From: Escherichia coli
GTDB taxonomy: Bacteria; Pseudomonadota; Gammaproteobacteria; Enterobacterales; Enterobacteriaceae
DNA length: 64,000 nucleotides
Strand: one strand, 5' to 3'
Assembly: GCF_003334405.1 (NCBI RefSeq)
Contig: NZ_QOWM01000012.1
A program made the translations under genes and the position numbers. Under the pieces are notes generated by a model. The model was not told where the DNA came from. It was given only the letters and a program-made list of their open reading frames with translations, and did not search any database. Below are positions 21,178 to 61,620 of this stretch, piece after piece. Positions within the stretch are counted from its first letter, which is position 1; each line of letters begins with the position of its first letter.

Positions 21178-21852
21178 ATGAAAACAATCCATGACATCCG
21201 GCGGTCTAACGCCAGAAAACTGAGAGATGGTGTTGGCGGGAATTCTTCCTTTGCCACTATGATTGATCGCGAGCCAACCCAAACCAGCAGGTTTATGGGA
21301 GATGGTGCTACTAAAAATATCGGTGACAGCATGGCACGACACATCGAAAAATGTTTCGACCTGCCTGTCGGATGGCTCGATCAAGAACACCAGACAACGA
21401 ACATCACAAAAAAACCTGATGTTTCAATCACTAATAAACAAATCACATTAGTCCCTGTCATATCATGGGTACAGGCCGGAGCATGGAAAGAAGTTGGATA
21501 TTCTGAGGTTGATTTGAGCACAGCAGAAACGTATCCCTGCCCTGTACCCTGTGGGGAAATGACTTATATCTTGCGGGTGATAGGTGATTCAATGATTGAT
21601 GAGTACCGCCCGGGAGACATGATTTTTGTCGATCCTGAAGTACCTGCCTGCCACGGTGACGACGTTATTGCATTGATGCACGATACAGGTGAAACCACCT
21701 TCAAAAGGTTGATAGAAGATGGGACACAGCGTTATCTCAAAGCGTTAAACCCAAACTGGCCTGAGCCTTACATTAAGATCAACGGTAATTGCTCTATAAT
21801 TGGTACTGTGATTTTCTCAGGAAAACCAAGAAGATACAAAATCAAAGCTTAA
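21178..21852 (+). CDS. CI-like prophage repressor with LexA-type S24 autopeptidase domain
   Basis: 224-aa ORF; C-terminal half has the S24 Ser/Lys dyad context (VIGDSMIDEY ... TFKRL). Confidence 0.8.
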   Translation: MKTIHDIRRSNARKLRDGVGGNSSFATMIDREPTQTSRFMGDGATKNIGDSMARHIEKCFDLPVGWLDQEHQTTNITKKPDVSITNKQITLVPVISWVQAGAWKEVGYSEVDLSTAETYPCPVPCGEMTYILRVIGDSMIDEYRPGDMIFVDPEVPACHGDDVIALMHDTGETTFKRLIEDGTQRYLKALNPNWPEPYIKINGNCSIIGTVIFSGKPRRYKIKA

Positions 21853-21855
21853 TCA

Positions 21856-21882
21856 ATGTTTATGAACCTGCTTCGGCAGGTT
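21856..21882 (+). terminator. Rho-independent terminator after the repressor gene
   Basis: gaacctgcttcggcaggttttttta. Confidence 0.5.
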
Positions 21883-22086
21883 TTTTTATACTTGACAATG
21901 TACCTTTGAGATACATAATGTACCCAAGAGAAACAACAAACAGGCAGGACGCTCACGAAGTAGCCGCCTGGGGCATATGAAGTCCAGGATGATTCGTTAG
22001 CAACAAAAAAGCGCCCTACAGGACGCTTAGCTCTTTAACAATCTGGTCCCCATCAACAAGTAACTGATAACTTGAGGAGGTGTGAA

Positions 22087-22293
22087 ATGCACAAAACAGA
22101 ACCCAAAATCGTTGCGCCTGGCTACACAGATGAGGAAATTTATGAGTGGATGACAAAGAAGCTGGCAGCTATAAACCAGCTTCGTGAAGTGCTGTCTTAT
22201 CGACAGGAAACAATAGACTCCTTAAAAAAACTGGATCAGGAAATCACGGTTTTATCACAGGATGTTACTTTAGATATTGTGCAGACAAATTAG
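22087..22293 (+). CDS. Hypothetical small protein
   Basis: ATG preceded by gaggagg; MHKTEPKIVAPGYTDEEIYEWMTKKLAAINQLREV...; AT-rich island. Confidence 0.4.
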   Translation: MHKTEPKIVAPGYTDEEIYEWMTKKLAAINQLREVLSYRQETIDSLKKLDQEITVLSQDVTLDIVQTN

Positions 22294-22699
22294 GATCCCA
22301 TTCATTTTCGTCAAAATCATCAAAGTGATGAATTTGTGATCTCCAGTCTCGATAATCTAAAAATTTCTGGGCGGTTACGCTTATTTTATCAAGTGTGAGT
22401 TCATCCTGAATTGAAAGAAGAAGTTCATCAAATTTCATCTCATTAATCTGTTTTGGCATCCAGTGATGCTTCATCAGAATAAGGTGAACCAGTGCCTTTT
22501 TCCCATTCAACTGATTATAGGGAGTGCCGAATTTCTTCCGGTGCTCATGTAAGACAAGGTCCAGAAGAGTAAGTAATGTTGCCCTTGATTCCACTTTGCT
22601 TATTTCGACTGATGACACTACCCCACTGATTTCAATGCCCCGATACTTTCCAACATTTTCACAGTGGGATTTGTACAGCGTGTAGATATTACCGGACAT
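22265..22699 (-). CDS. Hypothetical protein, candidate moron
   Basis: 144-aa ORF in an AT-rich island, convergent with the previous ORF; no recognisable motif. Confidence 0.45.
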   Translation of the reverse strand: MSGNIYTLYKSHCENVGKYRGIEISGVVSSVEISKVESRATLLTLLDLVLHEHRKKFGTPYNQLNGKKALVHLILMKHHWMPKQINEMKFDELLLSIQDELTLDKISVTAQKFLDYRDWRSQIHHFDDFDENEWDPNLSAQYLK

Positions 22700-22739
22700 T
22701 TCTTTTCCTTTTGCGTTGTTGGGGATAACCAGATTAACC

Positions 22740-23200
22740 GAATCCTTGTTGTTGGGGAATAACCAGGTCCACCTCGCCTGATGTGGCTAAAAGCAGGCAC
22801 ATAACAGCTAAGTATTTTTAACCAGAGAGAATCCTTAGCGTTGTGGTGAATGCGGCTCAGCGCACGCGGGTTAAGGTTGAGGCTGACAGTCGACCTTCTG
22901 TGGATACCCACCCGTCTGGTGTGCAACCTTCGCCAGGCACCGGGAGGCACCCGGCACCACAACTTTATGCTGTGTGTAGTCCTGGAGGTACCAGTTTGTA
23001 CCCTTGCTTCCGGCTGGTACCGTCCTTTTTACAAAACAGAGAAGAGCATCACCGGACGACGGGCTCATAACCCAATCCATCCGGGCGGCTGCCACCGCAG
23101 GTGTTCTTCTCTGTTTTGTGGAGAAACTAACCGCCCCTACGGGGGCATTCATGGAAATGTAATTGACTCAATAATCGCCGGACGGTGAGGGCTTCCTTTT
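22740..23200. other. GC-rich ORF-free segment, candidate structured non-coding RNA or decayed gene
   Basis: All overlapping ORFs are Arg/Pro-rich and look non-coding; long-range complementarity GTTGTGGTG...CACCACAAC and local stem GGTACCAG...CTGGTACC. Confidence 0.3.
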
Positions 23201-23216
23201 ACCCGAATTCAGCGCG

Positions 23217-23780
23217 GTGCAGCGCATATACGTGGAGAGCAAAATGTCATTTATTAAAACTTTTTCCGGGAAGCATTTTTATTATGACAGGATAAATAAA
23301 GACGACATCGATATTAACGATATCGCGGTTTCCCTTTCAAATATCTGTCGCTTTGCCGGTCATCTTTCGCACTTCTACAGCGTCGCCCAACATGCGGTTC
23401 TTTGCAGCCAGCTGGTGCCGCAGGAATTTGCTTTTGAAGCGTTAATGCATGATGCAACAGAAGCGTATTGCCAGGACATTCCCGCACCACTGAAACGCCT
23501 TCTTCCTGACTATAAACAAATGGAAGAAAAAATAGACGCCGTAATCCGTGAGAAATACGGGTTACCCCCAGTTATGAGTACGCCCGTGAAATATGCCGAT
23601 CTCATCATGCTGGCAACCGAACGCCGCGATCTCGGGCTTGATGATGGCTCTTTCTGGCCTGTACTGGAAGGTATCCCGGCAACAGAGATGTTCAACGTGA
23701 TTCCACTGGCACCGGGCCATGCCTACGGGATGTTTATGGAACGCTTTAACGAGTTATCGGAGTTACGCAAATGCGCATGA
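23217..23780 (+). CDS. HD-domain phosphohydrolase (YfdR-like 5'-nucleotidase)
   Basis: 187-aa ORF with HD signature FAGHLSHFYSVAQHAVL...MHDATEAY; probable start MSFIKTF at 23244. Confidence 0.7.
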   Translation: MQRIYVESKMSFIKTFSGKHFYYDRINKDDIDINDIAVSLSNICRFAGHLSHFYSVAQHAVLCSQLVPQEFAFEALMHDATEAYCQDIPAPLKRLLPDYKQMEEKIDAVIREKYGLPPVMSTPVKYADLIMLATERRDLGLDDGSFWPVLEGIPATEMFNVIPLAPGHAYGMFMERFNELSELRKCA

Positions 23781-24438: not shown

Positions 24439-24788
24439 TGGAGCCATACAGCCTCACACTCGATGAGGCCTGTCATTTTCTCAAGATATCCAGACCGACT
24501 GCCATTAACTGGATACGCACAGGGCGTCTTCAGGCAACACGCAAAGATCCCACTAAGAATAAATCTCCTTACCTCACAACACGACAAGCCTGCATTGCGG
24601 CTCTTCAGTCTCCGCTGCATACTGTCCAGGTGAGCGCGGGTGATGGCATAACAGAGGAAAGAAAATGTCACTCTTCCGCAGAGGTGAAATATGGTACGCC
24701 AGTTTCACATTGCCGAACGGTAAAAGATTTAAACAGTCTCTTGGAACAAAGGACAAAAGGCAGGCGACAGAACTCCATGACAAGCTAA
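24438..24788 (+). CDS. xis: Excisionase (P22 Xis-like, long form)
   Basis: Starts [37 protein letters not shown] (HTH); ~117 aa, overlapping the int start as in P22. Confidence 0.6.
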
Positions 24789-25828
24789 AGGCTGAAGCAT
24801 GGCGGGTCAGCAAACTTGGTGAAATACCTGATATAACGTTCGAGGAAGCGTGTGTCAGGTGGCTTGAAGAGAAAGCATATAAAAAATCACTGGACGATGA
24901 CAAAAGCCGGATCGGATTCTGGCTTCAACATTTCGCAGGAATGCAACTAAGAGACATTACTGAATCAAAAATTTATTCAGCAATGCAGAAAATGACGAAC
25001 CGGCGTCATGAGGAAAACTGGAAACTCAGGGCAGAAGCATGCAGAAAAAAAGGGAAACCTGTTCCAGAATACACGCCAAAACCAGCGTCCGTTGCAACGA
25101 AGGCTACGCATCTTTCATTTATAAAGGCCCTACTAAGAGCCGCAGAGCGTGAATGGAAAATGCTGGATAAGGCACCAATTATTAAAGTGCCTCAACCAAA
25201 GAATAAACGGATCCGCTGGCTGGAGCCCCATGAAGCACAAAGGCTGATTGATGAATGTCCGGAGCCATTAAAGTCTGTTGTTGAATTTGCACTGGCAACA
25301 GGCTTAAGACGCTCGAACATCATCAACCTTGAATGGCAACAAATAGATATGCAGCGCCGGGTGGCATGGATAAACCCGGAAGAGAGTAAATCAAACCGCG
25401 CAATCGGCGTTGCGCTGAATGATACTGCATGTCGCGTTTTGAAAAAACAAATCGGGAATCATCACCGTTGGGTATTTGTGTACAAGGAAAGCTGTACCAA
25501 ACCAGACGGAACGAAAGCGCCAACAGTAAGGAAGATGCGGTATGACGCAAACACAGCCTGGAAAGCGGCGCTGAGACGGGCTGGTATTGATGATTTCAGA
25601 TTTCACGACTTGAGACACACCTGGGCAAGTTGGCTGGTTCAAGCCGGAGTCCCGTTGTCAGTGTTACAGGAAATGGGAGGCTGGGAGTCTATCGAAATGG
25701 TTCGTCGATATGCTCACCTTGCACCTAATCACCTTACCGAACACGCACGGCAAATAGACTCGATCCTGAACCCATCGGTCCCAAATTCGTCCCAGTCAAA
25801 AAATAAGGAAGGTACTAATGATGTGTAA
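24665..25828 (+). CDS. int: Tyrosine integrase (P22 Int-like), thrW-specific
   Basis: 387-aa [37 protein letters not shown]...; catalytic region [39 protein letters not shown]; adjacent to the tRNA-Thr 3' end. Confidence 0.9.
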
Positions 25829-25841: not shown

Positions 25842-25917
25842 ATGGTGCCGATAATAGGAGTCGAACCTACGACCTTCGCATTACGAATGCGCTGCTCTAC
25901 CAACTGAGCTATATCGG
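25842..25917 (-). tRNA. thrW: tRNA-Thr (anticodon CGU)
   Basis: Minus-strand read GCCGATATAGCTCAGTTGGTAGAGCAGCGCATTCGTAATGCGAAGGTCGTAGGTTCGACTCCTATTATCGGCACCA; coordinates +/-1. Confidence 0.9.
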
Positions 25918-26032
25918 CCCTGAAAGGACATGTTCACGAACGTGAATCACGGTGGACAAGGTTAAAACTAACCGGGCGATGCGTCAATGGCCTTGTGAAT
26001 CAAATGGCTACTTTTGCATCACCCGGTTTTAT

Positions 26033-34546: not shown

Positions 34547-34851
34547 TTATACTCGTCATACTTCAAGTTGCATGTACTGCGACTGCGTTCGTTCACCCCA
34601 GTCACTTACTTATGTAAGCTCCTGGCGATTCACTCGCTTGTCGCCTTCCTGCAACTCGAATTATTTAGAGTATATAAATATAAAAATCAGGAAATGGCAG
34701 ACGAATCCAGGGCAAGAAAAAAAGAATTAATCCTGGAAAGGTCTGCAAAGAGTCATTGATAAAGGATTTGTCATGATTTACCTCCTTGCAGTTTGTGGAA
34801 TCAGAAAACGCGCACATACCAGGCGGGCGTTATTTTCATTGCAAGCTGGAT

Positions 34852-43484: not shown

Positions 43485-43590
43485 CTGCCTGATGCGCTGC
43501 GCTTATCAGGCCTACAAGGTTTCTGCAATATATTGAATTTGCAATATTTTGTAGGCCGGATAAGGCGTTCACGCCGCATCCGGCAAGTCC
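43485..43590. repeat. REP elements between lafB and lafA
   Basis: cctgatgcgctgcgcttatcaggcctac ... gtaggccggataaggcgttcacgccgcatccggcaag. Confidence 0.7.
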
Positions 43591-43594
43591 GCCA

Positions 43595-44509
43595 TTACTG
43601 CAGCAGGCTGGAAACCATGCTGGACATGCTGTTGGACTGTTTCAGCATGGTGATGCCGGTCTGCATCAGCACCTGCTGTTTGGTCATATTGGACGCTTCC
43701 GTAGCGTAGTCGGTATCCATGATGTTACCGATAGCAACTTCGGTGTTGTCCTGCATACTGGTCAGGTTATTAGCCGTGTCGTTCAGACGGTTGATAGACG
43801 CACCCAGCTTGGACTGGATCTGCGAAACATCATCCATCGCGGTAGAAATGCTGGTGATCATCTGGTTAGCCGAGCCAGACGCAGTCAGTTCAGTACCGCC
43901 AGAAACGCCTGCGGTGCCTGTGGTGTCTGCCTGATCCGCACTGAAGGAGTTGCTGATAGCAGAAAGGTCAGTCACCAGCGTGTTCAGTTGGCTAGAGATG
44001 TTCACGGTCATGGTGTCGGAAGATTCCGCGCCCACCTGGAAAGTTACCGCGCTCTGGAACAGGCCGTCAGTACCGGTGTTGCTGGTGCCGGAAACACCGA
44101 ACAGGTTGGTGCCGCCGTAGGTGGTGTTTTGCAGCATGTCAGACATCTGCTGGCCCAGTTCGTCGTATTCGTCCTGCATCGCCTGCAGATCGTCGTCGCT
44201 GTAGGTGCCGTTCGCTGCCTGAGTTGACAGGTCTTTCATACGACCCAGCACGTCAGACATTTCGTCGAACATGCTGTCGGCGGTTTGCAGCATCGCGGTG
44301 GCATCATTGATGTTGCTCAGCGCAACATCCATACCGCTGGACTGTGCTGTCAGACGGTTAGCAATTTGTTTGCCTGCGGCGTCATCGGCAGAAGAGTTAA
44401 TCCGGTTACCTGTCGCCAGGCGTTCCATAGATGTAGACAGAGAAGAGCTGCTTTTGCTGATTGCATTAACGGCGGCCATTGAGGCGTTATTGGTGTTAAT
44501 AGATAACAT
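43595..44509 (-). CDS. lafA: Lateral flagellin
   Basis: The ORF track starts at 44575; the conserved flagellin N-terminus MLSINTNNASMAAVNAISK begins at ~44509; conserved C-terminal D0 region. Confidence 0.85.
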   Translation of the reverse strand: MLSINTNNASMAAVNAISKSSSSLSTSMERLATGNRINSSADDAAGKQIANRLTAQSSGMDVALSNINDATAMLQTADSMFDEMSDVLGRMKDLSTQAANGTYSDDDLQAMQDEYDELGQQMSDMLQNTTYGGTNLFGVSGTSNTGTDGLFQSAVTFQVGAESSDTMTVNISSQLNTLVTDLSAISNSFSADQADTTGTAGVSGGTELTASGSANQMITSISTAMDDVSQIQSKLGASINRLNDTANNLTSMQDNTEVAIGNIMDTDYATEASNMTKQQVLMQTGITMLKQSNSMSSMVSSLLQ

Positions 44510-44943
44510 GATACTGCTCCTTGGGATTAATCGTTTTCGTTTCGATACCCTGTAAAAACGACACCTCGGGAGCAAACTTAAAACCGCCGTTAAAAAAATT
44601 TCACTGCGGTTTATCTGATGCCACTTTTAGCTAAAAAAAGCAGAGTTTAAATTCAGATAAAAAGATTATTAGCAATATCTGCCACATGGCCAGGTATCAA
44701 AATATGTCTTTATCAAACGCTTGATATAGTTAAGATTACCATCAATTAACGCGTTTTCTTCTCAATGTACTGATGCCAAAATTTACATTGCGTTGCAAAT
44801 AGTACACATTTGGCTATTGTACCTGTCCTGTCATTTCGTTACATTTCCACGCCATATAGTGATTAAGAATAATCCTATTACCATAAAATATTAATTATCA
44901 CGCAGAAAAATCATCTTCTCAGGGACGTATAAGACTGTGCTTT

Positions 44944-45837
44944 ATGCAAAGCACTATCAGGAAACATTTATCCCTTGCTAAGGTAAACTCAACTATGAGT
45001 ATTATTATCAACAACTGGCGGATGGACCCGTCGCTTAATGCCTTAATACATTGCGAAACGGGTGAAACACGTCGTCTCGGCGAATACCATTTTATTTTGC
45101 TGGAAACATTAGCAAAAAATGCCGATGTGGTTTTATCGCGATCTTATTTATGTGCCGAAGTATGGAAGAACCGCATTGTCGGCGGTAACAGCCTGCCGAC
45201 GGCGATACATGCATTACGCGTTGCTATCGACGATGATGGCAAACAACAGAACATTATTAAAACCATCCCGAAAAAAGGTTACCTGTGCAATAAAGAGTAT
45301 GTGTCTTTGCCGGAGTCATCGCCTGCGGAAGCGCTGATTATTACCAACCAGGTACAGGAAACTGTGCCAGGAGAGATATCTTCGACAACCCTGCCTGTGC
45401 CTGTTAGAAAAAAACATAAAGGACTGATGGGGTTAGCGTTGACCGCGGCTGTTATATTTATTGGCTCGACCGTGGGGTATTCACACTTGAAAAGTACACC
45501 TGACGCCCCGCAACTGGTAAAAGAGTCAATTAACAGCCCAAGAATAAAAATATTTCACCTTAGTTCTGGAAAAGAAAATAATTCCGCACCGTTACTGTCA
45601 CAAACCCTCGCACCAGGAAAAGACAAACTCGATAATTTATTGTCAGCGCATAATATGACAATGACAACCTATTATAAATATGTTCGTAACCGACTGGAGA
45701 GTGATATTGTTCTGCGCAACCAGTGCAACGGTAGCTGGCAATTAACCTTTAATGTGGATGAGTGGCAGAATAGCGATATTAATAGCGCGATGTATCAGAA
45801 TTTAGAGAAGTTGTTAAATACTGTGCAGAAGTGCTGA
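44944..45837 (+). CDS. lafZ: ToxR/CadC-like membrane-anchored transcriptional regulator
   Basis: N-terminal OmpR/PhoB-type winged helix, single TM helix GLMGLALTAAVIFIGSTVGY, periplasmic C-terminal domain; start may be MSIIINN at 44995. Confidence 0.7.
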   Translation: MQSTIRKHLSLAKVNSTMSIIINNWRMDPSLNALIHCETGETRRLGEYHFILLETLAKNADVVLSRSYLCAEVWKNRIVGGNSLPTAIHALRVAIDDDGKQQNIIKTIPKKGYLCNKEYVSLPESSPAEALIITNQVQETVPGEISSTTLPVPVRKKHKGLMGLALTAAVIFIGSTVGYSHLKSTPDAPQLVKESINSPRIKIFHLSSGKENNSAPLLSQTLAPGKDKLDNLLSAHNMTMTTYYKYVRNRLESDIVLRNQCNGSWQLTFNVDEWQNSDINSAMYQNLEKLLNTVQKC

Positions 45838-45844
45838 TGAGTGC

Positions 45845-45892
45845 CAATATATGCCGGATGCGACGCTAAACGCGTCTTATCCGGCCTACCGA
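45845..45892. repeat. REP element
   Basis: gccggatgcgacgctaaacgcgtcttatccggcctac. Confidence 0.6.
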
Positions 45893-45895
45893 TAA

Positions 45896-46873
45896 TTATC
45901 CCAATAAACTCCTCACCGTCTGGCTGGAAATTCGCGCCTGACCATTCACCGCCTGCAATAACACCTGATAGTTATGATTCGCGCTATCCAACACGCCGCC
46001 GAGATTTTCCGACGCCTGCACGGCGTTTTCCGTTTGCGGGAAGCGGGACATGCCGTCGATCAACTGGCGGGCTTTTTCCTGCTGCACCGCCATTTGCGCG
46101 CGCTGCTGATTAATGTTTTCTAACATCTGGGAAATCCCTGCCCCGCCCTGTTGCAGGCTTTGCGCTAAACGCTCGGCCTGCGACGGTTCGGCAAAGGTTT
46201 TTAGCGGCATAAACGCCGACTTATCACCATCGGTGCGCACGCTTAAGGTGCTTTCAATGTTGGGCCACTGCTTTTCGGTGGTGGAGAAGCTGATGCCGTC
46301 CGCTTGCTGATGCAGTTGCACACCCACGCGGCGCAGGGCGTTGGTCAGCCGCGTCTGATACTGCGCGGCGCTGTCATCCTCAGACAGCATCACCGCCGAA
46401 AGCTGAGTCTGCCGCCCGTCAGAGACGCTGAACATGCGCGTTCCCGGCGTGGGGTTGTGTACGAGATTCGCCAGATCCGGCGAGTGAAAAGTCACCCGCG
46501 CCTCGCCCTGCAACACTGGCTGCAACTGGCGGTCTACCGCACCGCCGGAAAGCGCGGTGCGTTTGTCCAGCATCTGCATCAGCGCCGTACTCTGCGCCTG
46601 CCCGCCCTTACGCTGGCTGTGACGATAATCGAGCAACTGCTGCTCCAGTTGCCCGAGGTAGTGATCCGCCTGCTGCAACGTGGTGAGCTGGTCGTTAAGC
46701 TGCACGCTGTAACGCTGCGGGCGAGTGGTAATCAGCGGCGAGGCCGGATATTCACTCGCCGTCGCCGGGAGTTTTTGCCGCACCGCCTGAGTGGGCGCAA
46801 CGGTTGACGACGATACCGCAGCGCTATGCGCGCTGCCGGTGGCGAGTGACGAAGAAGTAAGTCCGACCTGCAT
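45896..46873 (-). CDS. lafW: Lateral-flagella-specific protein of unknown function
   Basis: 325-aa Gln-rich ORF at the conserved position between lafZ and the flgL homolog. Confidence 0.6.
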   Translation of the reverse strand: MQVGLTSSSLATGSAHSAAVSSSTVAPTQAVRQKLPATASEYPASPLITTRPQRYSVQLNDQLTTLQQADHYLGQLEQQLLDYRHSQRKGGQAQSTALMQMLDKRTALSGGAVDRQLQPVLQGEARVTFHSPDLANLVHNPTPGTRMFSVSDGRQTQLSAVMLSEDDSAAQYQTRLTNALRRVGVQLHQQADGISFSTTEKQWPNIESTLSVRTDGDKSAFMPLKTFAEPSQAERLAQSLQQGGAGISQMLENINQQRAQMAVQQEKARQLIDGMSRFPQTENAVQASENLGGVLDSANHNYQVLLQAVNGQARISSQTVRSLLG

Positions 46874-46889
46874 ACGGTTCCTGAAAGAG

Positions 46890-47819
46890 TTAGAGAACGC
46901 TGAACAAATTCAACTCACTCACTTTCGAGTAAGTCTTGAGAGTAGCTTCCATTGCCACTTCCAGTCCGGTAAAGGTGATCGACGCCGGGCCGTAATCGAG
47001 ATCCTGTAAAGAACCAATCAACTCATCATTAGAGGTAGAAATATCGGTCTGCGCATCGCTCAGCATCGACATGGTGTTCTGCGTCTCGCCAAGCGACGCA
47101 ATTGAGGCGTTGAGATCGTCCGAAGCGGTATCCACCACATCAACGGCGTTCTGAATATCGCTCTGCACCTGCGGATCTGCCGGGTCAACGTTGGGGGCTT
47201 GCAACTCCTGAGAGAGCGAATTGAGCGTGTTGAGCACATCTAAATTGCTACCGAAGAAATCGCTCGCCGCCACGTTGGTATCCACTTCCACGCCGTTCGA
47301 AACGGTGGTCTGGCGGTGGTCGCTGTTGCCCTGATAGCTGTAGCTATCGGTCACGCCGTCGCCGTCATCGTCCACCGCCACAATCGGCGGCTGATCGTTG
47401 ATAGTGCCGCCAAACACGTAGTGCCCGTCTTCGTCCTGATAGTTCAGCGCCGCGACCATTGATTCGGTGAGCGACTCAATATCCTGCCCGAGACTTGCGA
47501 GCGAATCGGCGGTATTGGTGCCGTTCGCTGCTTCCAGCAGGTCGTCACGCACCGCCAGCAGGCTGTTGTTGACGCCATCGAGAATTGATTCCTGCTGGCT
47601 TAACCCCGCCGACGCGGAGTCGATATTGCTCTGATACTGCTCAATCGCCGACTGCTGGCGGTTTAACTGGGTAATGCGCGTGGCGGCGATCGGGTCATCG
47701 GACGGCTGCAAAATCTGCTTGCCGGTTGCCATCTGCTCGACCACATGCGCCAGATCGCCGGAGAGATCATTAAAACTTTGCGTCATCGAGACGTAGGTTT
47801 GTTGGGTGGTTACTCGCAT
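46890..47819 (-). CDS. lfgL: Hook-filament junction protein, FlgL-like
   Basis: Flagellin-like N- and C-terminal helices; ORF track start is 47843, likely start MRVTTQQ. Confidence 0.8.
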   Translation of the reverse strand: MRVTTQQTYVSMTQSFNDLSGDLAHVVEQMATGKQILQPSDDPIAATRITQLNRQQSAIEQYQSNIDSASAGLSQQESILDGVNNSLLAVRDDLLEAANGTNTADSLASLGQDIESLTESMVAALNYQDEDGHYVFGGTINDQPPIVAVDDDGDGVTDSYSYQGNSDHRQTTVSNGVEVDTNVAASDFFGSNLDVLNTLNSLSQELQAPNVDPADPQVQSDIQNAVDVVDTASDDLNASIASLGETQNTMSMLSDAQTDISTSNDELIGSLQDLDYGPASITFTGLEVAMEATLKTYSKVSELNLFSVL

Positions 47820-47833
47820 TTTCGCGCTCCCGC

Positions 47834-49210
47834 TTAGCTGCACATTTCCAGCACCGAATCGAAAATCTCGGCCCCGGCGGAAATGACTTTCAGATTGGCT
47901 TCATAAATTTGTTGATAGGTGATCAGGTTAACCGCCTCTTCGTCCATGCTGACGCCGCTGACGCTGCTCTGCTGGTTTTGCGCTGCGGAATAGACATTGG
48001 ACGCGGCATCGACTTCCGTCTGGTTTTGCTGGCTGTAAATGCCGATATTGCTGATGATTGACGAGCACGCCTGCCCGACCGTCACACTGCCAAGATTGGC
48101 AATTTCCAGCGGTTCGGTGGAGATGTTGATCAGCGCCTGCAGGTTGTCGCTGTTACCGCTTTCGTCCGGCGAACTGGAAAACGCCAGCTCATCGGCGGTG
48201 ATATCCGGGTTAACGGTCAGTGGGCCATCGGCATTGCTGGCGTCATAAATAAACAGCGGCTCGCCGGGGTTACCGTTGAGATCGTAGCCCTGCGCCAGCT
48301 GGTTGTTGACCGCATCGGCAAACTGCGAGGCCATGCTGTTGATGGTGTCGGTCAACGGCGTCAGCACATCGTTTTGATAATCAAACAGTGCGCCTAATGA
48401 ACCTCCAGTGTCGGTGGTCATCGTCGAGGTGGTGCCAGCGAAGGTCAGCGACATGGTCGGCGTGCCGTCGGCGTTGGTTTCCAGCGCGATGGTCGAGCTT
48501 TGTTGCCCGCTCACCAGCGGCTGACCGTTTTTCAGGGTGACGTTGTAGTTGCCCTGGTCGTCGATATTGACCTGCACTTCCATCATCCCGCTCAGTTCTT
48601 CCACCATCTGATCGCGGGCGTCGTACAGCGCAGAGGCGTTATCACCGTTGGCTTCGGCCTGAGCAATTTGCTGGTTATAGCTGGCGATACCGCTGGTGAG
48701 CGTGTTGATTTGCGACACCATCGCCTGCTGCTGGCTGATGATTTCCGTGCTTTGCGAGTCGACGTAATCGAGCGTGTTATCAATACGCAACGACAGCGCC
48801 CCGGCTTCGCTGATCACCTGCTCGCGCAGGGCGGAATCATCGGGGCTGGTGGTCGCTTCGTTAAGGGCGGCGAAGAAGTTATCGAAGCCGCCGCTCAGGC
48901 TGCTGTTATCGTCGCTTAGTACCGCTTCCAGTTGGCTGAGATACCCCTGCTGGGTGCTGTAATAGCCGTAATCGCTGGCGGCATACCACACCTGATTCAC
49001 CTGATACTGGTTGGAGACGCGGCGAATGCTGTCCACCTGTACGCCGTTACCGGCGCTGTTCGGCGAACCGCCGCTGGCACCGATGGTGCTGATCTCCGCC
49101 ACCTGGCGAGTGTAGCCAGTGATCATGGCGTTAGCGGTGTTTTGCGCCGTGACGTTCAGCTCCACCTGCGCGGTTGATGCGCCGCTGTAGCCGATGTTAA
49201 TCATGTCCAT
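47834..49210 (-). CDS. lfgK: Hook-associated protein, FlgK-like
   Basis: 458-aa ORF with FlgK-like termini. Confidence 0.85.
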   Translation of the reverse strand: MDMINIGYSGASTAQVELNVTAQNTANAMITGYTRQVAEISTIGASGGSPNSAGNGVQVDSIRRVSNQYQVNQVWYAASDYGYYSTQQGYLSQLEAVLSDDNSSLSGGFDNFFAALNEATTSPDDSALREQVISEAGALSLRIDNTLDYVDSQSTEIISQQQAMVSQINTLTSGIASYNQQIAQAEANGDNASALYDARDQMVEELSGMMEVQVNIDDQGNYNVTLKNGQPLVSGQQSSTIALETNADGTPTMSLTFAGTTSTMTTDTGGSLGALFDYQNDVLTPLTDTINSMASQFADAVNNQLAQGYDLNGNPGEPLFIYDASNADGPLTVNPDITADELAFSSSPDESGNSDNLQALINISTEPLEIANLGSVTVGQACSSIISNIGIYSQQNQTEVDAASNVYSAAQNQQSSVSGVSMDEEAVNLITYQQIYEANLKVISAGAEIFDSVLEMCS

Positions 49211-49274
49211 GTTGGATCCTTACCGGTAAATCGTGCCGGTTAAAAGCGGCGTGAAGATGGGGATTCTTAAATTC

Positions 49275-49500
<226 letters not shown>

Positions 49501-49513
49501 GAACGTCGGAGCC

Positions 49514-49813
49514 TCACCTATGCTTCGGCGACAACTGCTTCACAATCATCGCCGCAATCCCAATCCCGTGCTGCTGCGCCAGGGTGTTACACAACTCATC
49601 GTCATAAAATCCCTGCATCATGCGCACCGAATCGCTGTTAAATGGGTTATCTTTCGAATCAAACAACTCGTTGGTTTTACGCATCTCTTTCAGCATGTTG
49701 CGTAAAAAAATCGCCTCAAACTGTTCGGCGGCCTGCCTGATATCATTGGCCTGAACCTTCGGCCCCATTAACGCATCGCTGCCGTCAATCCCGCCGCTGC
49801 CGTTAACTTTCAT
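49514..49813 (-). CDS. lfgJ: Rod-binding protein, FlgJ N-terminal-domain-only homolog
   Basis: 99-aa ORF carrying only the rod-binding region; no muramidase domain. Confidence 0.75.
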   Translation of the reverse strand: MKVNGSGGIDGSDALMGPKVQANDIRQAAEQFEAIFLRNMLKEMRKTNELFDSKDNPFNSDSVRMMQGFYDDELCNTLAQQHGIGIAAMIVKQLSPKHR

Positions 49814-50928
49814 CAGATCACCTCCAGGTCGGCATCCAGCGCGCCCGCTTCATGCAGCGCCTGCAAAATTGACATAATGTCATCCGGCGTCGCACCTAAA
49901 CTGTTCAACGCATTGACCAGCGTTTTCAGGCTGCTCGACTCCGGCAAACTCACCACGCCCGGACGGGCATGATTCACCGCGATATTGCTCTGCGGCGTTA
50001 CCGCTGTGCGCCCGCCCGCAAAGGCATTCGGCTGGCTGACGTTGCTGGTTTCGTTAATCGAAACGGTCAAACTGCCGTGCGACACCGCCGCCGCGTGCAG
50101 CGCAACGCCATCGCCCATCACCACCGTGCCGGTACGCGAGTTAAACACCACGCGAGCGCGGATTTTCTCTGCCTGCACCTGCACATCGTCCAGTTGCGAC
50201 ATAAACGCCACCCGCGCACCGGGGCTGGTAGGCGCACGCACGGTAACGTTGGTGGAACTCTGTGCGGTGGCAATGCCACCAAACGAGGCGTTAATCGCCG
50301 CCGCAATGTTGTTAGCGTCTTTAAACGACGGACGTTTCAGGTTGAGGGTGATAGTGTCGCCCATCTGAAAATCGCTGGGGATCTCGCGCTCCACCGTTGC
50401 GCCGTTAGGAATTAACCCGGCGGTTGGAGTATTAACCGTTACGCTGGAGCCACTAGCCCCGGTGGCGTTCATCCCGCCGACCACCACGCTGCCCTGCGCC
50501 AGGGCATACACTTCACCATCTGCGCCGTGCAACTGCGTCAACAGCAAGGTGCCGCCGCGAATACTTTTCGCATCGCCAATCGACGAGACGGTGACATCAA
50601 TGGTCTGCCCGCGCGAGTACATCGGCGGCAACGTGGCGCTCACCGCCACTGCGGCGACGTTTTTCACCTTCGGGTCGATTTTATTCGGCAACTGCACGCC
50701 AAACTGGCGCAGCATATTGGTGATGGTCTGGTTGGTGAATTTGACCTGGTTTTTATCACCGGTACCGTCGAGGCCGACCACCAGGCTGTAGCCGACCAGT
50801 TGGTTTTCACGCACGCCCTGTACGTTAACCAGTGACTCCAGCGATTGCGCCAGCACCACGCCGGGTAGCGCCAGGCTTACGGCTACGACCACTGTTTTTA
50901 TCCAGTTTTGCATTGCACTCTCCGGCAT
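49813..50928 (-). CDS. lfgI: P-ring protein, FlgI-like
   Basis: 371-aa ORF with signal peptide and FlgI-like sequence. Confidence 0.9.
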
Positions 50929-51593
50929 TAAATCGGGAACAGAGGATGGTTAAACAACCGCGTCAGCCAGCCTGCGGCATTGGCGTCGCTTAACGCGCCA
51001 CGTCCGGCATAGGAGATACGGGCGTCGGCGATCCGCTGGGAGGAAACCGAGTTGTCGTTCTGGATGTCGTCGGCGCGCACCAGGCCGCTTAAGCGGATGT
51101 ACTCATCGCCCTGGTTGAGGGTGAGCCATTTCTCGCCGCGAATTTCCAGGATGCCGTTGGGCTGCACCGCATGGACGGAAACGGTGATCTCCCCGCGCAG
51201 GCTGTTCTGCTGCTGGGAAGTGGCGCTGCCGTCAAAGTCGCGGTTGGCGTCGATAGAGCCGGAAAGCTTATCTTTAGTGTGACCAAAAATGGTCGGTGCG
51301 CCGATATCGACGGTGTTGCTTTTGCCGAAGTTGGTTTTCGCCTGTTTGCTCGACTGGGTGGATTCTTCGAGGATCACCGTCAGGATATCGCCCACGCGAT
51401 AAGCCCGCCGATCGGCGGTCAGCGACCAGTTGTAGCCAGTTTCAAATACACCGCCAGCACGCCCGTCTGCCGGAGGCGGTGCTTCGGTTTTCGGTGGCGC
51501 AAAGTATGCGTCGTCTTTTTTGACCAGAATGGCCTGCGATTCACACCCGCTAAGCAGGGGAAGCAGTGCCACCAGCCAGAGATAATTTTTCAC
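50928..51593 (-). CDS. lfgH: L-ring lipoprotein, FlgH-like
   Basis: 221-aa ORF with lipobox LLSGC. Confidence 0.85.
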
Positions 51594-51631
51594 GTTCTGC
51601 CTGTTTTAAATACAGTGAGTTATGTGCTCTT

Positions 51632-51795
51632 GTAGGTCGGATAAGACGCGTCAGCGTCGCATCCGACAACAAGCGTGTGCACATTGCCCGATGCGCGTGT
51701 GGACGGTTTATAAACGGTTAATCAACCAAACTATGTGCACCGTCCACTCGCTTATCGTGCCTACAAGGGCGTCAGCGTCGCATCCGACATTTCGC
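51632..51795. repeat. REP-like palindromic elements
   Basis: gtaggtcggataagacgcgtcagcgtcgcatccgac and an inverted copy. Confidence 0.6.
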
Positions 51796-51796
51796 C

Positions 51797-52582
51797 TTAC
51801 AGCGTCTGGCTGATGTACTGCAACATATCGTCCGCCGCCGACACCATTTTGGCGTTCATCTCGTACGCGCGTTGCACCGTAATCATCGCCACCATTTCGT
51901 TGACGATATCCACGTTCGAGCCTTCCAGTGCGTTGTCCTGCAAAGTGCCAAGCCCATCTTCGCCCGGCACACCTTCTGTCGGCTGACCGCTGGCGGCGGT
52001 TTCCAGATACAGGTTGTCGCCCTCGGCGGAAAGCCCCGCCGGGTTGGCGAAGTTAACCAGCGTCAGTTGCCCTAACTCGGTCGCGTCGCTGTCGCCGGGT
52101 AAGATCGCCGTCACTGTGCCATCCTCACCAAACGCGACGTTGGTGGCCCCTGCCGGAACGTCGATTTCCGGCTGCAACGGCAAGCCCTGCGAGTTGGTCA
52201 GCACGCCGTCGGCGTTCACCTGCAAGTTGCCATCGCGGATATAGGCGATATCGCCGTTAGCCTTTTGCACCTGCAAAAATCCCTGCCCCATAATGGCGAC
52301 ATTCATCGCGTTGTCGGTGGTTTCGACGTTGCCTTCGGTGAAGGTTTTCTGGGTACCGACAATGCGCACGCCGCTACCGAATTGCAGCCCGGTCGGCATG
52401 ATGTTGTTCTGGTCGAGCATCGCGCCCGGCGCTTCCTGGGTCTGGTAGAACAGATCCTGAAACATCACCCGGTCGCGCTTGAAGCCGGTGGTATTAACGT
52501 TGGCGATGTTGTTGGCAATCGCGCTCATTTCAGCATCCTGCGCCGAGAGGCCGGTTTTGCTGATCCATAATGCTGCGTTCAT
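51797..52582 (-). CDS. lfgG: Distal rod protein, FlgG-like
   Basis: 261-aa ORF with conserved rod-protein termini. Confidence 0.9.
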   Translation of the reverse strand: MNAALWISKTGLSAQDAEMSAIANNIANVNTTGFKRDRVMFQDLFYQTQEAPGAMLDQNNIMPTGLQFGSGVRIVGTQKTFTEGNVETTDNAMNVAIMGQGFLQVQKANGDIAYIRDGNLQVNADGVLTNSQGLPLQPEIDVPAGATNVAFGEDGTVTAILPGDSDATELGQLTLVNFANPAGLSAEGDNLYLETAASGQPTEGVPGEDGLGTLQDNALEGSNVDIVNEMVAMITVQRAYEMNAKMVSAADDMLQYISQTL

Positions 52583-52606
52583 GGTGGTAAATTCCGTGTT
52601 ATTTTT

Positions 52607-52650
52607 GGGCCGCGGTTGCCGGATGCGGCGTGAACGCCTTATCCGGCCTA
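52607..52650. repeat. REP element
   Basis: gccggatgcggcgtgaacgccttatccggcctac. Confidence 0.6.
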
Positions 52651-52660
52651 CGATGTGCGG

Positions 52661-53398
52661 TTACGAGCCGCGCAATAAGCGGTTGCCCGCGTCGCTGATA
52701 TCTTCGGCGGTTTTCATCATCTTGATCTGCGCTTCGAACTGGCGGTTCATGGCGATGGACGACATCATTTCGCTCACCGCCGAGACGTTGCTGCCCTCGA
52801 GAAAACCGCCGCTGACTTTGATATTTTCATCGCGCTGGGCCGGAACGCCGTCCGCCGTTATCAACATCCCTTCAGGATTTTTCGCCAGGTTAGCGACCGG
52901 GATATCCACCAGCTTCAGGCGGTCGATATCCATCGTCGCGGTCACGTCGCCGTCATCGGGCGTCACCGACAGCGTGCCGTCGCTGCCAAACGAAGCAATG
53001 GCATTCGGCGGCAGAATGATCGGGCCGTTATCCCCCAGCACCAGATTGCCGTCGATGGCCAGTTGCCCCTGGTCGTCCTGCTGAATGTTGCCGTTGCGGG
53101 TATACACTTCGTTGCCGTTTTTATCCTGCACCGCAATGTAACCCGCGCCCTGAATCGCCACGTCCAGCGGGCGTTCGGTTTTCTCCGCTACACCCGTGCT
53201 GTCGTTCACGCCGCTGGCCCCTTCCTGCGCCATATAGCGCGTGTCGAAGCCGCCGCCTTTCACCTTGTCGTTGGTTGCCATTGCCATATCGGCGCGAAAA
53301 CCGTTGGTGTTGACGTTCGCCAGGTTGTTGGCGCTAATCTGCTGCTCGTACAGGGTCTGAGAAGCACCGCTCAGGGCGGTATAAATCAGGCGGTCCAT
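52661..53398 (-). CDS. lfgF: Proximal rod protein, FlgF-like
   Basis: 245-aa ORF with rod-protein termini. Confidence 0.85.
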   Translation of the reverse strand: MDRLIYTALSGASQTLYEQQISANNLANVNTNGFRADMAMATNDKVKGGGFDTRYMAQEGASGVNDSTGVAEKTERPLDVAIQGAGYIAVQDKNGNEVYTRNGNIQQDDQGQLAIDGNLVLGDNGPIILPPNAIASFGSDGTLSVTPDDGDVTATMDIDRLKLVDIPVANLAKNPEGMLITADGVPAQRDENIKVSGGFLEGSNVSAVSEMMSSIAMNRQFEAQIKMMKTAEDISDAGNRLLRGS

Positions 53399-54600: not shown

Positions 54601-54643
54601 TGTGTCTTCCTGTTAATTCAAATTTTGACAGCGTGCCCGTTGT

Positions 54644-54725
54644 TTTGCCGGATGCGGCGTGAACACCTTATCCGGCCTACAAAACAATGCAGTTTCATGT
54701 AGGCCTGATAAGCGAAGCGCATCAG
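54644..54725. repeat. REP elements
   Basis: gccggatgcggcgtgaacaccttatccggcctac ... gtaggcctgataagcgaagcgcatcaggc. Confidence 0.6.
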
Positions 54726-54743
54726 GCAATTTGGCACCGGACA

Positions 54744-55888: not shown

Positions 55889-55890
55889 GC

Positions 55891-56226: not shown

Positions 56227-56307
56227 TTCCTGCGTCACTCCTGCTTCAATCCGCATACGCTAAGCAATCGCCGTGCCATTTTTTAAGTGACTGATGAGAA
56301 AGGGTTT

Positions 56308-57045: not shown

Positions 57046-57125
57046 TTTGCGCTGGCGATTAAAGTTTTGCCGCCTGTTAACCGCTTTACCGGAGTAACCC
57101 ACCCAAATACCGAGACGAGGTTGCG

Positions 57126-57404: not shown

Positions 57405-57416
57405 GAGGCCGATGAA

Positions 57417-57845: not shown

Positions 57846-57933
57846 CGACAATACCTTCCCCCATCGCGGAAACGGATTTTCCGCCTGATTGCCAATCCCT
57901 TGTTTTTGACTACAAAAAATCCCGGCACGCTTA

Positions 57934-58902: not shown

Positions 58903-58904
58903 GT

Positions 58905-61525: not shown

Positions 61526-61534
61526 ACCGCGCAA

Positions 61535-61620
<86 letters not shown>

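Follow-up and report, generated by a model that had tools for sequence, protein, structure and literature searches.

A folded, conserved non-coding RNA leader cassette in the early-left region of an Escherichia coli lambdoid prophage

The small RNA DicF of the Qin prophage is cut from the transcript of a DicA-repressed promoter, with a 190-nt form generated by RNase III and one of 53 nt by RNase E; read-through species of greater length were not detected for Qin dicF (bioRxiv 10.1101/2023.04.14.536235). PasD, a small RNA that depends on Hfq and was detected on Northern blots, was related to STnc100 by its authors (PMC8550237; bioRxiv 10.64898/2026.05.13.724894); its Northern and RIL-seq data come from EPEC copies only (PMC8550237). 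Copies of canonical STnc100 are found downstream of stx2, and the PasD locus is near Q. In HK022, the put RNAs act in cis, as nascent leaders that make RNA polymerase resist the terminators that follow. In lambda, the N leader contains an RNase III site in a long hairpin, and the C4 RNA of P1 and P7 and the CI RNA of P4 are regulatory RNAs derived from phage leaders and matured by RNase P. Here we analysed a segment of a 64,000-nt stretch of E. coli DNA (the window, to which all positions refer) and found that 22769-23146 is a folded, conserved non-coding RNA leader cassette of ~380 bases on the + strand. Its layout resembles that of the DicF/STnc100 region in other E. coli prophages, and it includes tRNA-like parts.

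Limits and prophage setting of the cassette

The first-pass annotation had marked 22700-23216 as a GC-rich structured segment. The composition was as described, with a G+C content of 0.48-0.585 over 22700-23199 against 0.35-0.445 in the flanks. The limits were too wide: the conserved unit starts with CCACC at 22769 and ends near 23146 on the + strand, and 22700-22768 and 23147-23216 fall outside it. The upstream stretch (22700-22768, - strand) is the 5' region of a minus-strand 144-aa gene of the ECs1072 family. It contains direct repeats, GTTGTTGGGGA(A)TAACCAG, at 22715-22735 and 22748-22768 (repeat families D4 and D13), which recur beside other inserted minus-strand genes, and homology with SfV, e14, phiES15 and LLS begins only at 22769. 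Beyond the 3' limit lies the region upstream of yfdR (23147-23243, + strand). From 5' to 3', the cassette consists of a 5' module, the hairpin P0, a multi-stem domain 1, a linker, an intrinsic terminator and a 23-bp hairpin with an initiator-tRNA-like tip. In relatives, hairpins with a GAAAG loop lie upstream of the cassette; with no N gene present, a boxB- or nut-like reading of these was set aside.

The host element is an e14/SfV-type lambdoid prophage, and the cassette is located at the entrance of its early-left operon. A cI-like repressor gene and a PL-like promoter close to consensus precede it, and yfdR...xis-int lie downstream. The order repressor gene, cassette, early-left genes (yfdP/Q/R; kil and gam in phiES15) was found in 10 annotated phages and prophages. 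The first gene 3' of the cassette is yfdR (5'-deoxynucleotidase; 23244-23780, + strand; PGAP annotation of an identical record, PHROG 318), followed by further genes, xis and int (24665-25828) and tRNA-Thr (25846-25918). From 23133 onwards the window matches the SfV region upstream of yfdR, so that the yfdP-yfdQ genes of SfV are missing from the window. The PL-like promoter, TTGACA-16-CATAAT (11 of 12 matches in a promoter scan, + strand), spans 21892-21919 and, with the two operator-like repeats that overlap it (21897-21915 and 21917-21935), occupies 21892-21935, next to the cI terminator (21864-21883). The TGTACC motif of the repeats recurs at three sites in the cro-like/cI-like intergenic region. 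This promoter, which is also present in SfV, is the probable source of the transcript crossing the cassette. Because ~880 nt and an opposed gene lie between PL and the cassette in the window, we only infer that transcription reaches it. A promoter pattern scan of the segment found no sigma-70 promoter inside the cassette, and just upstream there were weak -10-like strings and nothing stronger. In LLS, the 5' module lies directly 3' of a TTGACC-17-TAGATT promoter.

The cassette sits where lambda has PL-nutL-N and HK022 has PL-putL. As the phages that bear it have no N gene at the usual place, it could be a put-like element whose nascent RNA makes RNA polymerase resist the following and later terminators. 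We regard this as quite unlikely. Like putL and putR of HK022, the cassette is an RNA element that lies upstream of terminators, right at the start of an early-left operon in an N-less lambdoid phage, and a strong hairpin with a U-tract must be passed for xis and int to be expressed. For LLS, which bears the cassette, the authors found no N homologue and suggested a put-like mechanism (PMC12315714). In the phage collection, put phages and cassette phages form disjoint sets, and none of 21 phage records retrieved by blastn with putL carries the cassette. However, put RNAs are ~70 nt long with two stems, and the cassette resembles them neither in sequence nor in size. The same cassette type is also found in the Q-holin interval, in which antitermination is already provided by Q, and some early-left leaders (L172, L193, L170) lack domain 1 and P0. 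A second copy was found in neither the early-right nor the late operon of the window (Rfam E-value scan of the whole window), there are no further convincing + strand terminators within the operon, and the homologous terminator of Qin stops most transcripts. The cassette shares with the lambda nutL-N leader its position downstream of PL and a long hairpin upstream of the first gene, but the window prophage has no N gene at the usual place, and no boxB was recognised in its leader. A boxA-like 12-mer 740 nt upstream of the cassette occurs in this prophage type only. The 68-aa ORF after PL belongs to PHROG 1744, a family label without a function, and by reading is not arginine-rich. No PHROG 304-type Q protein was found in the window.

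Fold, covariation and coding potential

The 5' module, CCACCUCGCCUGAUGUGGCUAAAAGCAGGC (22769-22799, + strand), is the first conserved block of the cassette and is shared by the window, SfV, e14, phiES15, LLS, sal3 and the relatives L116, L132, L076, L143, L162, L172 and L193. It allows two overlapping helices, CCAC/GUGG and GCCUG/CAGGC, and may thus form a pseudoknot; in L076, CUAC/GUAG replaces CCAC/GUGG. In the predicted fold, the next segment (22800-22839, + strand) consists of CAUAAC (22800-22805) and the hairpin P0, with the strands GCUAAG (22807-22812) and CUUAGC (22834-22839). CAUAAC is able to pair with GUUGUG at 22840-22845 and so to lengthen P0. By reading, the variants CACAAC, UGCAAC, UACAAC and CGCAGC of relatives can all pair with GUUGUG, and the occurrence of CGCAGC among them fits RNA pairing better than a -10 element. 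In relatives, P0 holds inserts of 55-65 nt with T-arm-like hairpins or an initiator-tRNA-like motif.

Domain 1 (22840-22963, + strand) is a multi-stem, tRNA-shaped and STnc100-like domain according to Rfam STnc100, the predicted fold and a covariance model. Its closing helix P1 (22840-22848 with 22955-22963) is followed by AAU, and the inner stems are P2 (22852-22867), P3 (22873-22897), P3b (22900-22911), P4 (22914-22938) and P5 (22940-22954). The long-range complementarity between GUUGUGGUG and CACCACAAC noticed in the first pass corresponds to P1, in which GTTGTGGTG (22840-22848) pairs with CACCACAAC (22955-22963). P1 closes both the minimum-free-energy and the centroid fold of 22839-22964, which are identical, and it corresponds to the helix that closes the STnc100 consensus in Rfam. 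The same folding scaffold is shared by 47 distinct versions of domain 1, and the covariance model found 59 more copies. P1 was paired in 98.2% of cells among 39 distinct homologues found without fixing its sequence, with few two-sided changes. The centre of the domain is hypervariable and in some relatives absent. When an antisense target for this centre was sought in its own locus, the longest complementary runs were 8-12 nt, no longer than in unrelated loci. Domain 1 is followed by a conserved single-stranded linker, UUUAUGCUGUGUGUAGUCCU (22964-22983, + strand), in which UGCUGUGUGUAGUC is unchanged while the adjoining helices vary in sequence. The linker aligns with the 5' part of DicF from Qin and may, by this analogy, represent a small-RNA seed.

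The intrinsic terminator (+ strand) has a covarying stem formed by 22984-22994 and 23014-23025, a 19-nt loop and a U-tract at 23026-23030. A local stem proposed earlier between GGTACCAG (22987-22994) and CTGGTACC (23014-23021) proved to be the core of this stem, upstream of the UUUUU. The stem sequence varies among phages with pairing retained. In terminator helix 1, both sides have changed in 5 of 6 pairs (GGUACCAG, GGCGUC, GGCGCC and others), and the UUUUU is invariant. The terminator was missed by the pattern scan because its loop exceeds 8 nt, an unusually large size. It is followed by domain 2, a ~23-bp hairpin with a three-way top (23031-23119, + strand; inverted repeat I1), and the hairpin 23031-23120 has a fold z-score of -7.95. 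Domain 2 helices 2-4 are paired in 85-99% of cases, with 9 pairs changed on both sides, and their G.U pairs fit the + strand only. The initiator-tRNA-like tip, GGGCUCAUAACCC (23061-23073, + strand), is identical to the three G-C pairs and the loop of the anticodon arm of the E. coli initiator tRNA, whose sequence was verified against 5426 genomes. An invariant GGAGAAACUAACC (23120-23132, + strand) follows, in which GGAGAA is unchanged in 31 sequences and can pair with the terminator U-tract; these pairs (72-77 with 194-199) never vary and hence give no evidence for or against pairing. The cassette ends with a G+C hairpin, GCCCCUACGGGGGC (23133-23146, + strand), which covaries (helix 5).

The 401-nt fold had a z-score of -5.2 on the + strand and -3.3 on the - strand. 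In the covariation check, 95.3% of cells were paired, compared with 45-50% when the partners were slid, and 92 cells were changed on both sides, compared with 6-16 in the controls; none of 500 shuffles reached the observed covariation values. A structured phage non-coding RNA, as the first-pass annotation had suggested, is supported by the family matches described below (STnc100 below threshold in six independent relatives, and a dicF-like layout), by covariation and by the lack of a conserved reading frame. The suggestion of a ribozyme-like element fared differently. E-value scans against Rfam, run on the region and on the entire window, returned no ribozyme family, and relatives show a hypervariable or even missing centre in the main domain; nothing points to a ribozyme.

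The segment had also been called free of ORFs. ORFs of 75-114 aa do cross it, but none matches PHROG or NCBIfam and they look non-coding. Current annotation gives it no feature, a 'hypothetical protein' or the K-12 gene ymfH: PGAP labels 22843-23162 'hypothetical protein, frameshifted' and names the e14 copy of K-12 ymfH. Together with the open frames of 75-114 aa in the window, these labels would fit a decayed or frameshifted protein gene, the alternative raised in the first pass, which we consider very improbable. Only near-identical copies keep the 'ymfH' frame open; in ST64B, e14 and every more distant relative it is interrupted after 6-42 codons. K-12 YmfH has another start and frame. No protein family matches, an intrinsic terminator lies inside the supposed gene, length changes are not multiples of three, and the compensatory base-pair changes fit RNA and not protein. 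We rejected the decayed gene because the reading frame is not conserved among homologues, and K-12 ymfH is most likely a mis-called RNA. Long inverted repeats and a tRNA-derived 13-mer, as in attachment sites overlapping tRNA genes, could instead mark a site acting at the DNA level and lacking an RNA function, such as operators, a recombination site or a remnant attachment site with tRNA sequence. This can be given hardly any weight, as G.U pairs are tolerated on one strand only, the U-tract is oriented, the phages that carry the cassette differ in their integrases, it is also found in late operons, and the true operators lie elsewhere (21897-21935).

Comparison with STnc100, PasD and the dicF region of Qin

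The Rfam model STnc100 (RF02076) matched the window over the full model (1-206) with 38.4 bits, below the gathering threshold of 47 bits, and a scan at gathering scores gave no match in the segment. Full-model matches of 29.2-40.6 bits, all six below 47, were obtained in the window, SfV, e14, ST64B, 118970_sal3 and phiES15. The STnc100 consensus architecture is present, with a closing helix around several hairpins, the CACCGGGAGGCACCCGGCACCA hairpin, which is identical to the consensus in the window, and a 3' terminator hairpin with a U-run. Like STnc100 and PasD, the cassette is prophage-encoded, and late regions also contain relatives of it, situated between the Q and holin genes. In contrast, the window type is located in an early-left leader, has an extra 5' module, P0 and domain 2, and has an unrelated centre sequence.

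The DicF model (RF00039, gathering threshold 48 bits) gave no match in the window at E < 10. In e14 and L184 it matched the linker and terminator with 28.5 and 29.6 bits, respectively, against 76.7 bits for true DicF. The terminator shares its position and part of its sequence with that of DicF, to which it is homologous. In K-12, the Qin dicF region is colinear with the window: the dicA repressor gene is followed by small ORFs, a P0-like hairpin, a GUUGUGG-closed domain, which the covariance model hits at L212:2859-2987, the linker and DicF, and then by a second STnc100-like domain and dicB. In the window, too, a repressor-controlled early operon begins with a long hairpin, a GUUGUGG-closed domain and an intrinsic terminator. 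Both regions come after a CI-like repressor gene, dicA with small ORFs in Qin, and Qin continues with dicB and onwards to int. The Qin hairpin starts with UUGGCGGUAYCAGUUU and ends with CCGCCCUUUUU, as in the window type. Counting 190 nt back from the 3' end of DicF leads to the junction of P0 and GUUGUGG, and the equivalent span in the window, 22840-23030, is 191 nt by our count. The two regions differ in the linker, the candidate seed, and in the hairpin loop. After the terminator, the window has the initiator-tRNA-tipped hairpin, whereas Qin has the second STnc100-like domain. In a crude duplex test against ftsZ, the linker could not be told apart from shuffles; DicF itself was likewise not separated from shuffles.

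From these comparisons, we propose, with a probability of about 0.6, that the cassette serves the early-left operon as a repressor-controlled non-coding leader and shares the architecture of the Qin dicF region. Judging from its homologues dicF, STnc100 and PasD, transcription from PL would enter the cassette once the repressor is lifted, and many transcripts would stop at the terminator at 23030. RNase III would cut the long hairpins and RNase E the linker, releasing a ~190-nt species (22840-23030) and a DicF-like species of ~60-70 nt, with predicted RNA ends at ~22840, 22964-22984 and 23030. The released small RNAs may act in trans on host mRNAs, and the read-through fraction would express yfdR...xis-int. 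With termination, processing and read-through combined, the cassette would be both a small-RNA gene cluster and an operon gate. The invariant initiator-tRNA-like hairpin, the tRNA-like topology and the hypervariable centre of domain 1 are left unexplained by this leader model. Viewed as the counterpart of the dicF region, the cassette links DicF, STnc100/PasD and the early-left leaders of N-less lambdoid phages such as SfV, ST64B, e14 and LLS into a single modular family. The comparison with Qin predicts both the RNA ends and the RNases involved, and makes the cassette a candidate for the gating of xis and int expression in N-less phages.

Resemblances to tRNA and distribution

The resemblances to tRNA could themselves be the function. 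Domain 1 and the initiator anticodon look-alike would then engage host tRNA-handling factors, with RNase P, MetRS, IF3, the 30S P site, VapC-type initiator-tRNA nucleases and retron systems as candidates, and would regulate how the first gene is translated, or else detect or weaken host defence. Although we consider such mimicry unlikely, several features are consistent with it. GGGCUCAUAACCC is invariant in 96 distinct phage contexts while the flanking stems vary, and it lies ~45-120 nt before a start codon in the examined L139, L167, L184 and SfV. Domain 1 is shaped like the acceptor, D and T arms: P1 leads through a 3-nt joint to P2, a variable centre follows, and P5 abuts P1 on its 3' strand. 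A second scaffold type has complementary P2 and P5 loops that change in concert (GCUGAU/AUCAGC, GUCGAU/UUCGAC and GCCGAU/AUCGGC); for the P5 loop of the window scaffold type, we found no convincing complementary partner. The domain 1 slot of L184 has canonical D and T arms and scores 28.5 bits with the tRNA model (cut-off 29). In addition to the T-arm-like hairpins in P0 inserts, NCCA is found 3' of P1 in some copies, and some copies adjoin phage tRNA genes. Over-expressed 'ymfH' triggers a retron toxin (bioRxiv 10.1101/2020.06.22.160242).

On the other hand, the retron result came from an ORF clone and was not assigned to the RNA. The window copy has neither a D-loop nor a T-loop consensus and gave no Rfam tRNA (RF00005) hit on 22840-22963 in the E-value scans, and ARAGORN found no tRNA in cassette relatives. 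The lower anticodon stem is not copied, U33 is changed to C in the variant L040, the loop of e14 has diverged, and tRNA ancestry lacking a present function would explain the likeness equally well. As in tRNA and tRNA-like RNAs, domain 1 has a four-way-type topology with a 3' hairpin abutting the closing helix, but the window copy has no CCA, its closing helix is 9 bp long, and its centre is variable or absent among copies. Furthermore, the Qin 5' end that matches the cassette depends on RNase III. A literature search did not find the initiator-like 13-mer outside tRNA contexts, nor a paper combining tRNA-like, lambdoid and RNase P. The view that the whole cassette is a mosaic of tRNA mimics working via the host tRNA and translation machinery is decidedly unlikely. 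The initiator-like hairpin might bind the 30S P site, IF3 or MetRS and so set the translation of the first early-left or lysis gene, or might be a decoy or sensor for initiator-tRNA-cutting nucleases or retron systems. If functional, the look-alikes would represent an unusual phage route into host translation or defence.

Of 5426 complete E. coli genomes, 3003 contained sequence matching the segment, frequently at more than one place, and matches also occurred in phages of Shigella, Salmonella, Klebsiella, Cronobacter and Citrobacter.

A conserved, structured, non-coding cassette on the plus strand

The element is a conserved, structured, non-coding cassette of the plus strand that carries an internal terminator and heads the early-left operon of the prophage. 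The first-pass annotation had delimited it as an ORF-free, GC-rich segment at 22700-23216. The segment is real, with a G+C content of 0.54-0.585 against 0.35-0.445 in the flanks, but its start had to be corrected, since homology in alignments with the related SfV, e14, phiES15 and LLS begins exactly at CCACC, 22769. The first 69 bases (22700-22768), with two direct repeats inside, are the 5' region of the opposed gene. ORFs do cross the segment, but not one behaves as a gene. The repeats, GTTGTTGGGGA(A)TAACCAG at 22715-22735 and 22748-22768, lie a short way upstream of where the minus-strand ECs1072 gene starts and also precede other minus-strand genes inserted beside the cassette (comparison loci L143, L157, L164 and L193), so that they may serve the inserted gene as promoter or control region.

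From 5' to 3', the cassette comprises a conserved module with two overlapping helix options (22769-22799), CAUAAC with hairpin P0 (22800-22839), domain 1 (22840-22963), the conserved linker UGCUGUGUGUAGUC (22964-22983), a terminator hairpin of 11 pairs followed by UUUUU (22984-23030), domain 2, a hairpin of ~23 bp with a three-way top (23031-23119; z = -7.95), and the invariant GGAGAAACUAACC with a small G+C hairpin (23120-23146). Domain 1 contains five hairpins, and its minimum-free-energy fold is identical to its centroid fold; it is closed by helix P1, GUUGUGGUG/CACCACAAC, the long-range 9-mer complementarity noticed earlier (22840-22848 with 22955-22963). The local stem GGTACCAG/CTGGTACC (22987-22994 with 23014-23021) was likewise recovered. 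The region 22760-23160 folds better than dinucleotide shuffles by 5.2 SD on the plus strand and by 3.3 SD on the minus strand, and the plus strand is the folding strand because a number of U.G and G.U pairs, invariant or frequent, would be mismatches on the other.

Covariation was assessed in alignment A3, which spans terminator, domain 2 and G+C hairpin in 31 diverse copies and for which RNAalifold predicted 43 pairs; partners slid by 1-3 columns and 500 shuffles served as controls. A standard pair was found in 95.3% of cells (45-50% with slid partners), 92 cells were changed on both sides (6-16), and the covariation score was 0.245 (0.03-0.056); none of the 500 shuffles reached the observed cells paired, two-sided changes or covariation score. 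Together with the sub-threshold STnc100 matches, the dicF-like layout and the absence of a conserved reading frame, these compensatory changes support the earlier suggestion of a structured phage non-coding RNA.

A scan of viral contigs anchored on the two P1 strands gave 120 loci with 47 distinct domain-1 sequences, all folding to a common scaffold. Since P1 was fixed in that scan, a covariance model was built, which detected 59 full-length copies in 88 sources collected by other criteria, just one copy in the window and none in HK022. P1 is paired in 98.2% of cells in the 59 copies, with few two-sided changes and in a model-fitted alignment that favours pairing; compensation is visible by eye in L140 and L156 (GUUGUGAU or GUUGUGAC with GUCACAAC) and in the second unit of the K-12 prophage Qin (GAUGUGGUG with CACUGCAUC). 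The centre of domain 1 varies extremely between copies, at least 15 unrelated versions being present, or is missing altogether, and no complementary partner of it was found within its own locus. A 12-nt perfect complement to the P4 loop, AGGTTGCACACC, in host DNA past the attachment site (window ~27030) was dismissed as chance level; runs equally long also occur against unrelated loci.

The alternative of a decayed gene was rejected, because the frame is closed in distant homologues, protein families give no match and a terminator lies within the supposed gene. PGAP labels 22843-23162 as a frameshifted hypothetical protein, and the e14 copy is named ymfH. When ~110 distinct homologues were translated from the shared ATG, the frame was open only in near-identical SfV-type and window-type copies; it stops after 7 codons in ST64B, after 42 in e14 and after 6-58 in all copies of the second scaffold type, and K-12 YmfH has a GTG start and a different frame. 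No frame of the segment matched PHROGs or NCBIfam. In SfV-type leaders (L005 and others), no stop codon interrupts the ymfH-frame ORF across the terminator and domain 2, and it joins yfdP in frame, which probably misleads gene callers. Over-expressed ymfH (in K-12 e14, L003:2576-2887) is reported to trigger the retron-Sen2 toxin RcaT (bioRxiv 10.1101/2020.06.22.160242). Because the ymfH ORF is not conserved and the clone takes in both domains of the cassette and its terminator, the RcaT trigger could be the cassette RNA.

Prophage setting and kinship with STnc100 and DicF

The window is 100% identical to one E. coli chromosome record, in which an e14/SfV-type lambdoid prophage is integrated beside tRNA-Thr and proA. 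A minus-strand cro-like gene (ending at 21087), the plus-strand LexA/cI-like repressor gene ymfK (21178-21852) and the repressor terminator (21864-21883) precede a near-consensus promoter, TTGACA-16-CATAAT (21892-21919). Two TGTACC-type operator repeats overlap this promoter, three copies also lie between the cro-like and cI-like genes, and promoter and overlapping repeats are the PL/OL equivalent. A 68-aa ORF separates it from the opposed 144-aa ECs1072-family gene (22265-22699, minus strand), and the cassette is followed by yfdR (from 23244), three small genes, xis, int (to 25828) and tRNA-Thr. From 23133 on, the window aligns to the SfV region upstream of yfdR; the prophage therefore lacks yfdP-yfdQ, which lie 3' of the cassette in SfV.

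A boxA-like 12-mer, GCTCTTTAACAA, exact rrn-type, occurs at 22030-22041, ~105 nt downstream of the PL-like promoter, adjoining a hairpin (22028-22009) scanned as the terminator of the opposed gene; it was not found in ten other loci compared, and a scan allowing at most one mismatch gave a match in 25 of 100 shuffles. Above the Rfam gathering score, isrK was detected in mEp460, SfV, Stx2a_WGPS2 and ST64B (L004:323-511, L005:226-414, L006:263-451 and L002:21-97), beside the antirepressor gene in the early-right operon, and C4 antisense RNA in the first three. Several naRNA4 (REP-like) matches and one ES036 outside the prophage (window 43508-61625), and sub-threshold V_AS5-like (34552-34675) and isrG-like matches (1538-1786 and 1841-1955), are unrelated to the cassette.

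The sole Rfam match of the cassette is STnc100, over the whole model but below cut-off (38.4 versus 47 bits; E-value 4e-6 in a 3-kb scan and 8.5e-5 in the whole window). The closing helix of the model is P1, and its consensus hairpin CACCGGGAGGCACCCGGCACCA is identical in the cassette. Since five independent relatives give the same full-length sub-threshold match (phiES15 40.6, SfV 39.5, 118970_sal3 37.5, ST64B 35.1 and e14 29.2 bits), these copies form a consistent distant STnc100 subfamily rather than a chance match. A 2026 preprint relates STnc100, itself a prophage small RNA, to PasD (bioRxiv 10.64898/2026.05.13.724894), which depends on Hfq and was confirmed as a small RNA on Northern blots (PMC8550237).

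Sub-threshold DicF matches fall on the linker and terminator of e14 (28.5 bits) and of the relative L184 (29.6 bits). In K-12 Qin, a gap of 567 nt separates dicB from the dicA repressor and ydfABC and holds, in order, a P0-like hairpin, a GUUGUGGC-closed multi-stem domain, a linker, DicF (76.7 bits) and a second STnc100-like domain. The last (L212:2859-2987; 34.4 bits with Rfam, 42.1 bits with our own covariance model) fills the space from the DicF terminator to the dicB start codon and has compensating changes in its closing helix. Read against the window, the parts correspond, indicating that the cassette is the e14/SfV-type counterpart of the dicF region. The window linker differs from the DicF seed. 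Crude scoring of duplexes with the leader of ftsZ gave no sign of pairing for it, but did not tell DicF itself from shuffles either. Qin DicF is cut from a polycistronic RNA transcribed from the DicA-repressed promoter: cleavage by RNase III produces a form of 190 nt, and cleavage by RNase E the DicF of 53 nt; an internal promoter was not found, and transcript past DicF was not detected (bioRxiv 10.1101/2023.04.14.536235). By our own arithmetic, 190 nt back from the DicF U-tract is the P0/GUUGUGG junction (L212 ~2656), and the equivalent window span, 22840-23030, is 191 nt.

The cassette is of a kind already known, the prophage leader small RNAs of the DicF/STnc100 type. The literature consulted contains neither the assignment of ymfH and the SfV/ST64B/LLS leaders to this kind, nor the modular picture, nor the tRNA look-alikes. 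Of 5426 complete E. coli genomes, 3003 contain some part of the query 22650-23260, at a median of two places per genome, and so do 74 phage records that cover six host genera.

Proposed working of the leader

We put at roughly 0.6 the probability that the cassette is a repressor-controlled, terminator-gated leader processed to trans-acting small RNAs. By the precedent of Qin, STnc100 and PasD, PL derepression would cause the leader to be transcribed, largely as far as 23030; RNase III would process the long hairpins and RNase E the linker, yielding products of ~190 nt and 60-70 nt that would act in trans, and read-through would supply yfdR...xis-int. The leader might instead mediate antitermination as a device like the put RNAs of HK022: it occupies the position of nutL-N in lambda and putL in HK022, put phages and cassette phages are disjoint sets, and for LLS, where N is absent, a put-like device was suggested by its authors (PMC12315714). 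This is unlikely, however, as the cassette does not resemble put, related cassettes lie between a gene for a Q antiterminator (PHROG 304) and that for the holin, P0 and domain 1 are wholly absent from some early-left leaders (L172, L193 and L170), and no further convincing plus-strand terminators were seen in the operon.

tRNA look-alikes and the initiator motif

Domain 1 has the topology of a tRNA: P1 is followed by a joint of three bases, P2 and a variable centre, and P5 directly adjoins the 3' strand of P1. Copies of the second scaffold type have complementary P2 and P5 loops, which co-change in three versions (GCUGAU/AUCAGC, GUCGAU/UUCGAC and GCCGAU/AUCGGC), resembling the D-loop/T-loop contact of tRNA. 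In L184 (4893-5021), the domain-1 slot is occupied by canonical D and T arms plus a long insert, with P1 as acceptor stem, and scores 28.5 bits with the Rfam tRNA model against a cut-off of 29. The otherwise matching leader of L200 (7856-7978), with the usual scaffold, differs from it only in domain 1, which therefore behaves as a swappable cassette. P0 inserts of relatives include T-arm-like hairpins, NCCA follows P1 in some copies, and some relatives adjoin true phage tRNA genes. In late/structural regions, tRNA genes Ser-Arg-Met lie downstream of L021:729-979 and a tRNA-Arg gene upstream of L057:4895-4970. The D-loop/T-loop consensus is not present in domain 1 of the window, so tRNA-likeness there is one of topology.

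At the tip of domain 2, GGGCUCAUAACCC (23061-23073) is identical to the three G-C pairs and loop of the anticodon arm in E. coli initiator tRNA, whose sequence was confirmed against all 5426 genomes. The motif is invariant in 96 distinct phage contexts, framed as stem-AC-motif-AAYC-stem with varying flanking stems, and occurs in four settings: the domain-2 tip, P0 of leaders between Q and the holin gene, lone hairpins 5' of holin or other genes, and a stand-alone small RNA. No mention of it outside tRNA was found in the papers searched. A functional mimic of initiator tRNA, if true, would be new; tRNA ancestry alone could explain the motif. In L144 (minus strand, oriented position ~12097) and L145, a TTGACG-17-TATATT promoter, an initiator-like hairpin and a strong terminator sit between structural genes, a unit that looks like an independent small-RNA gene built on the motif.
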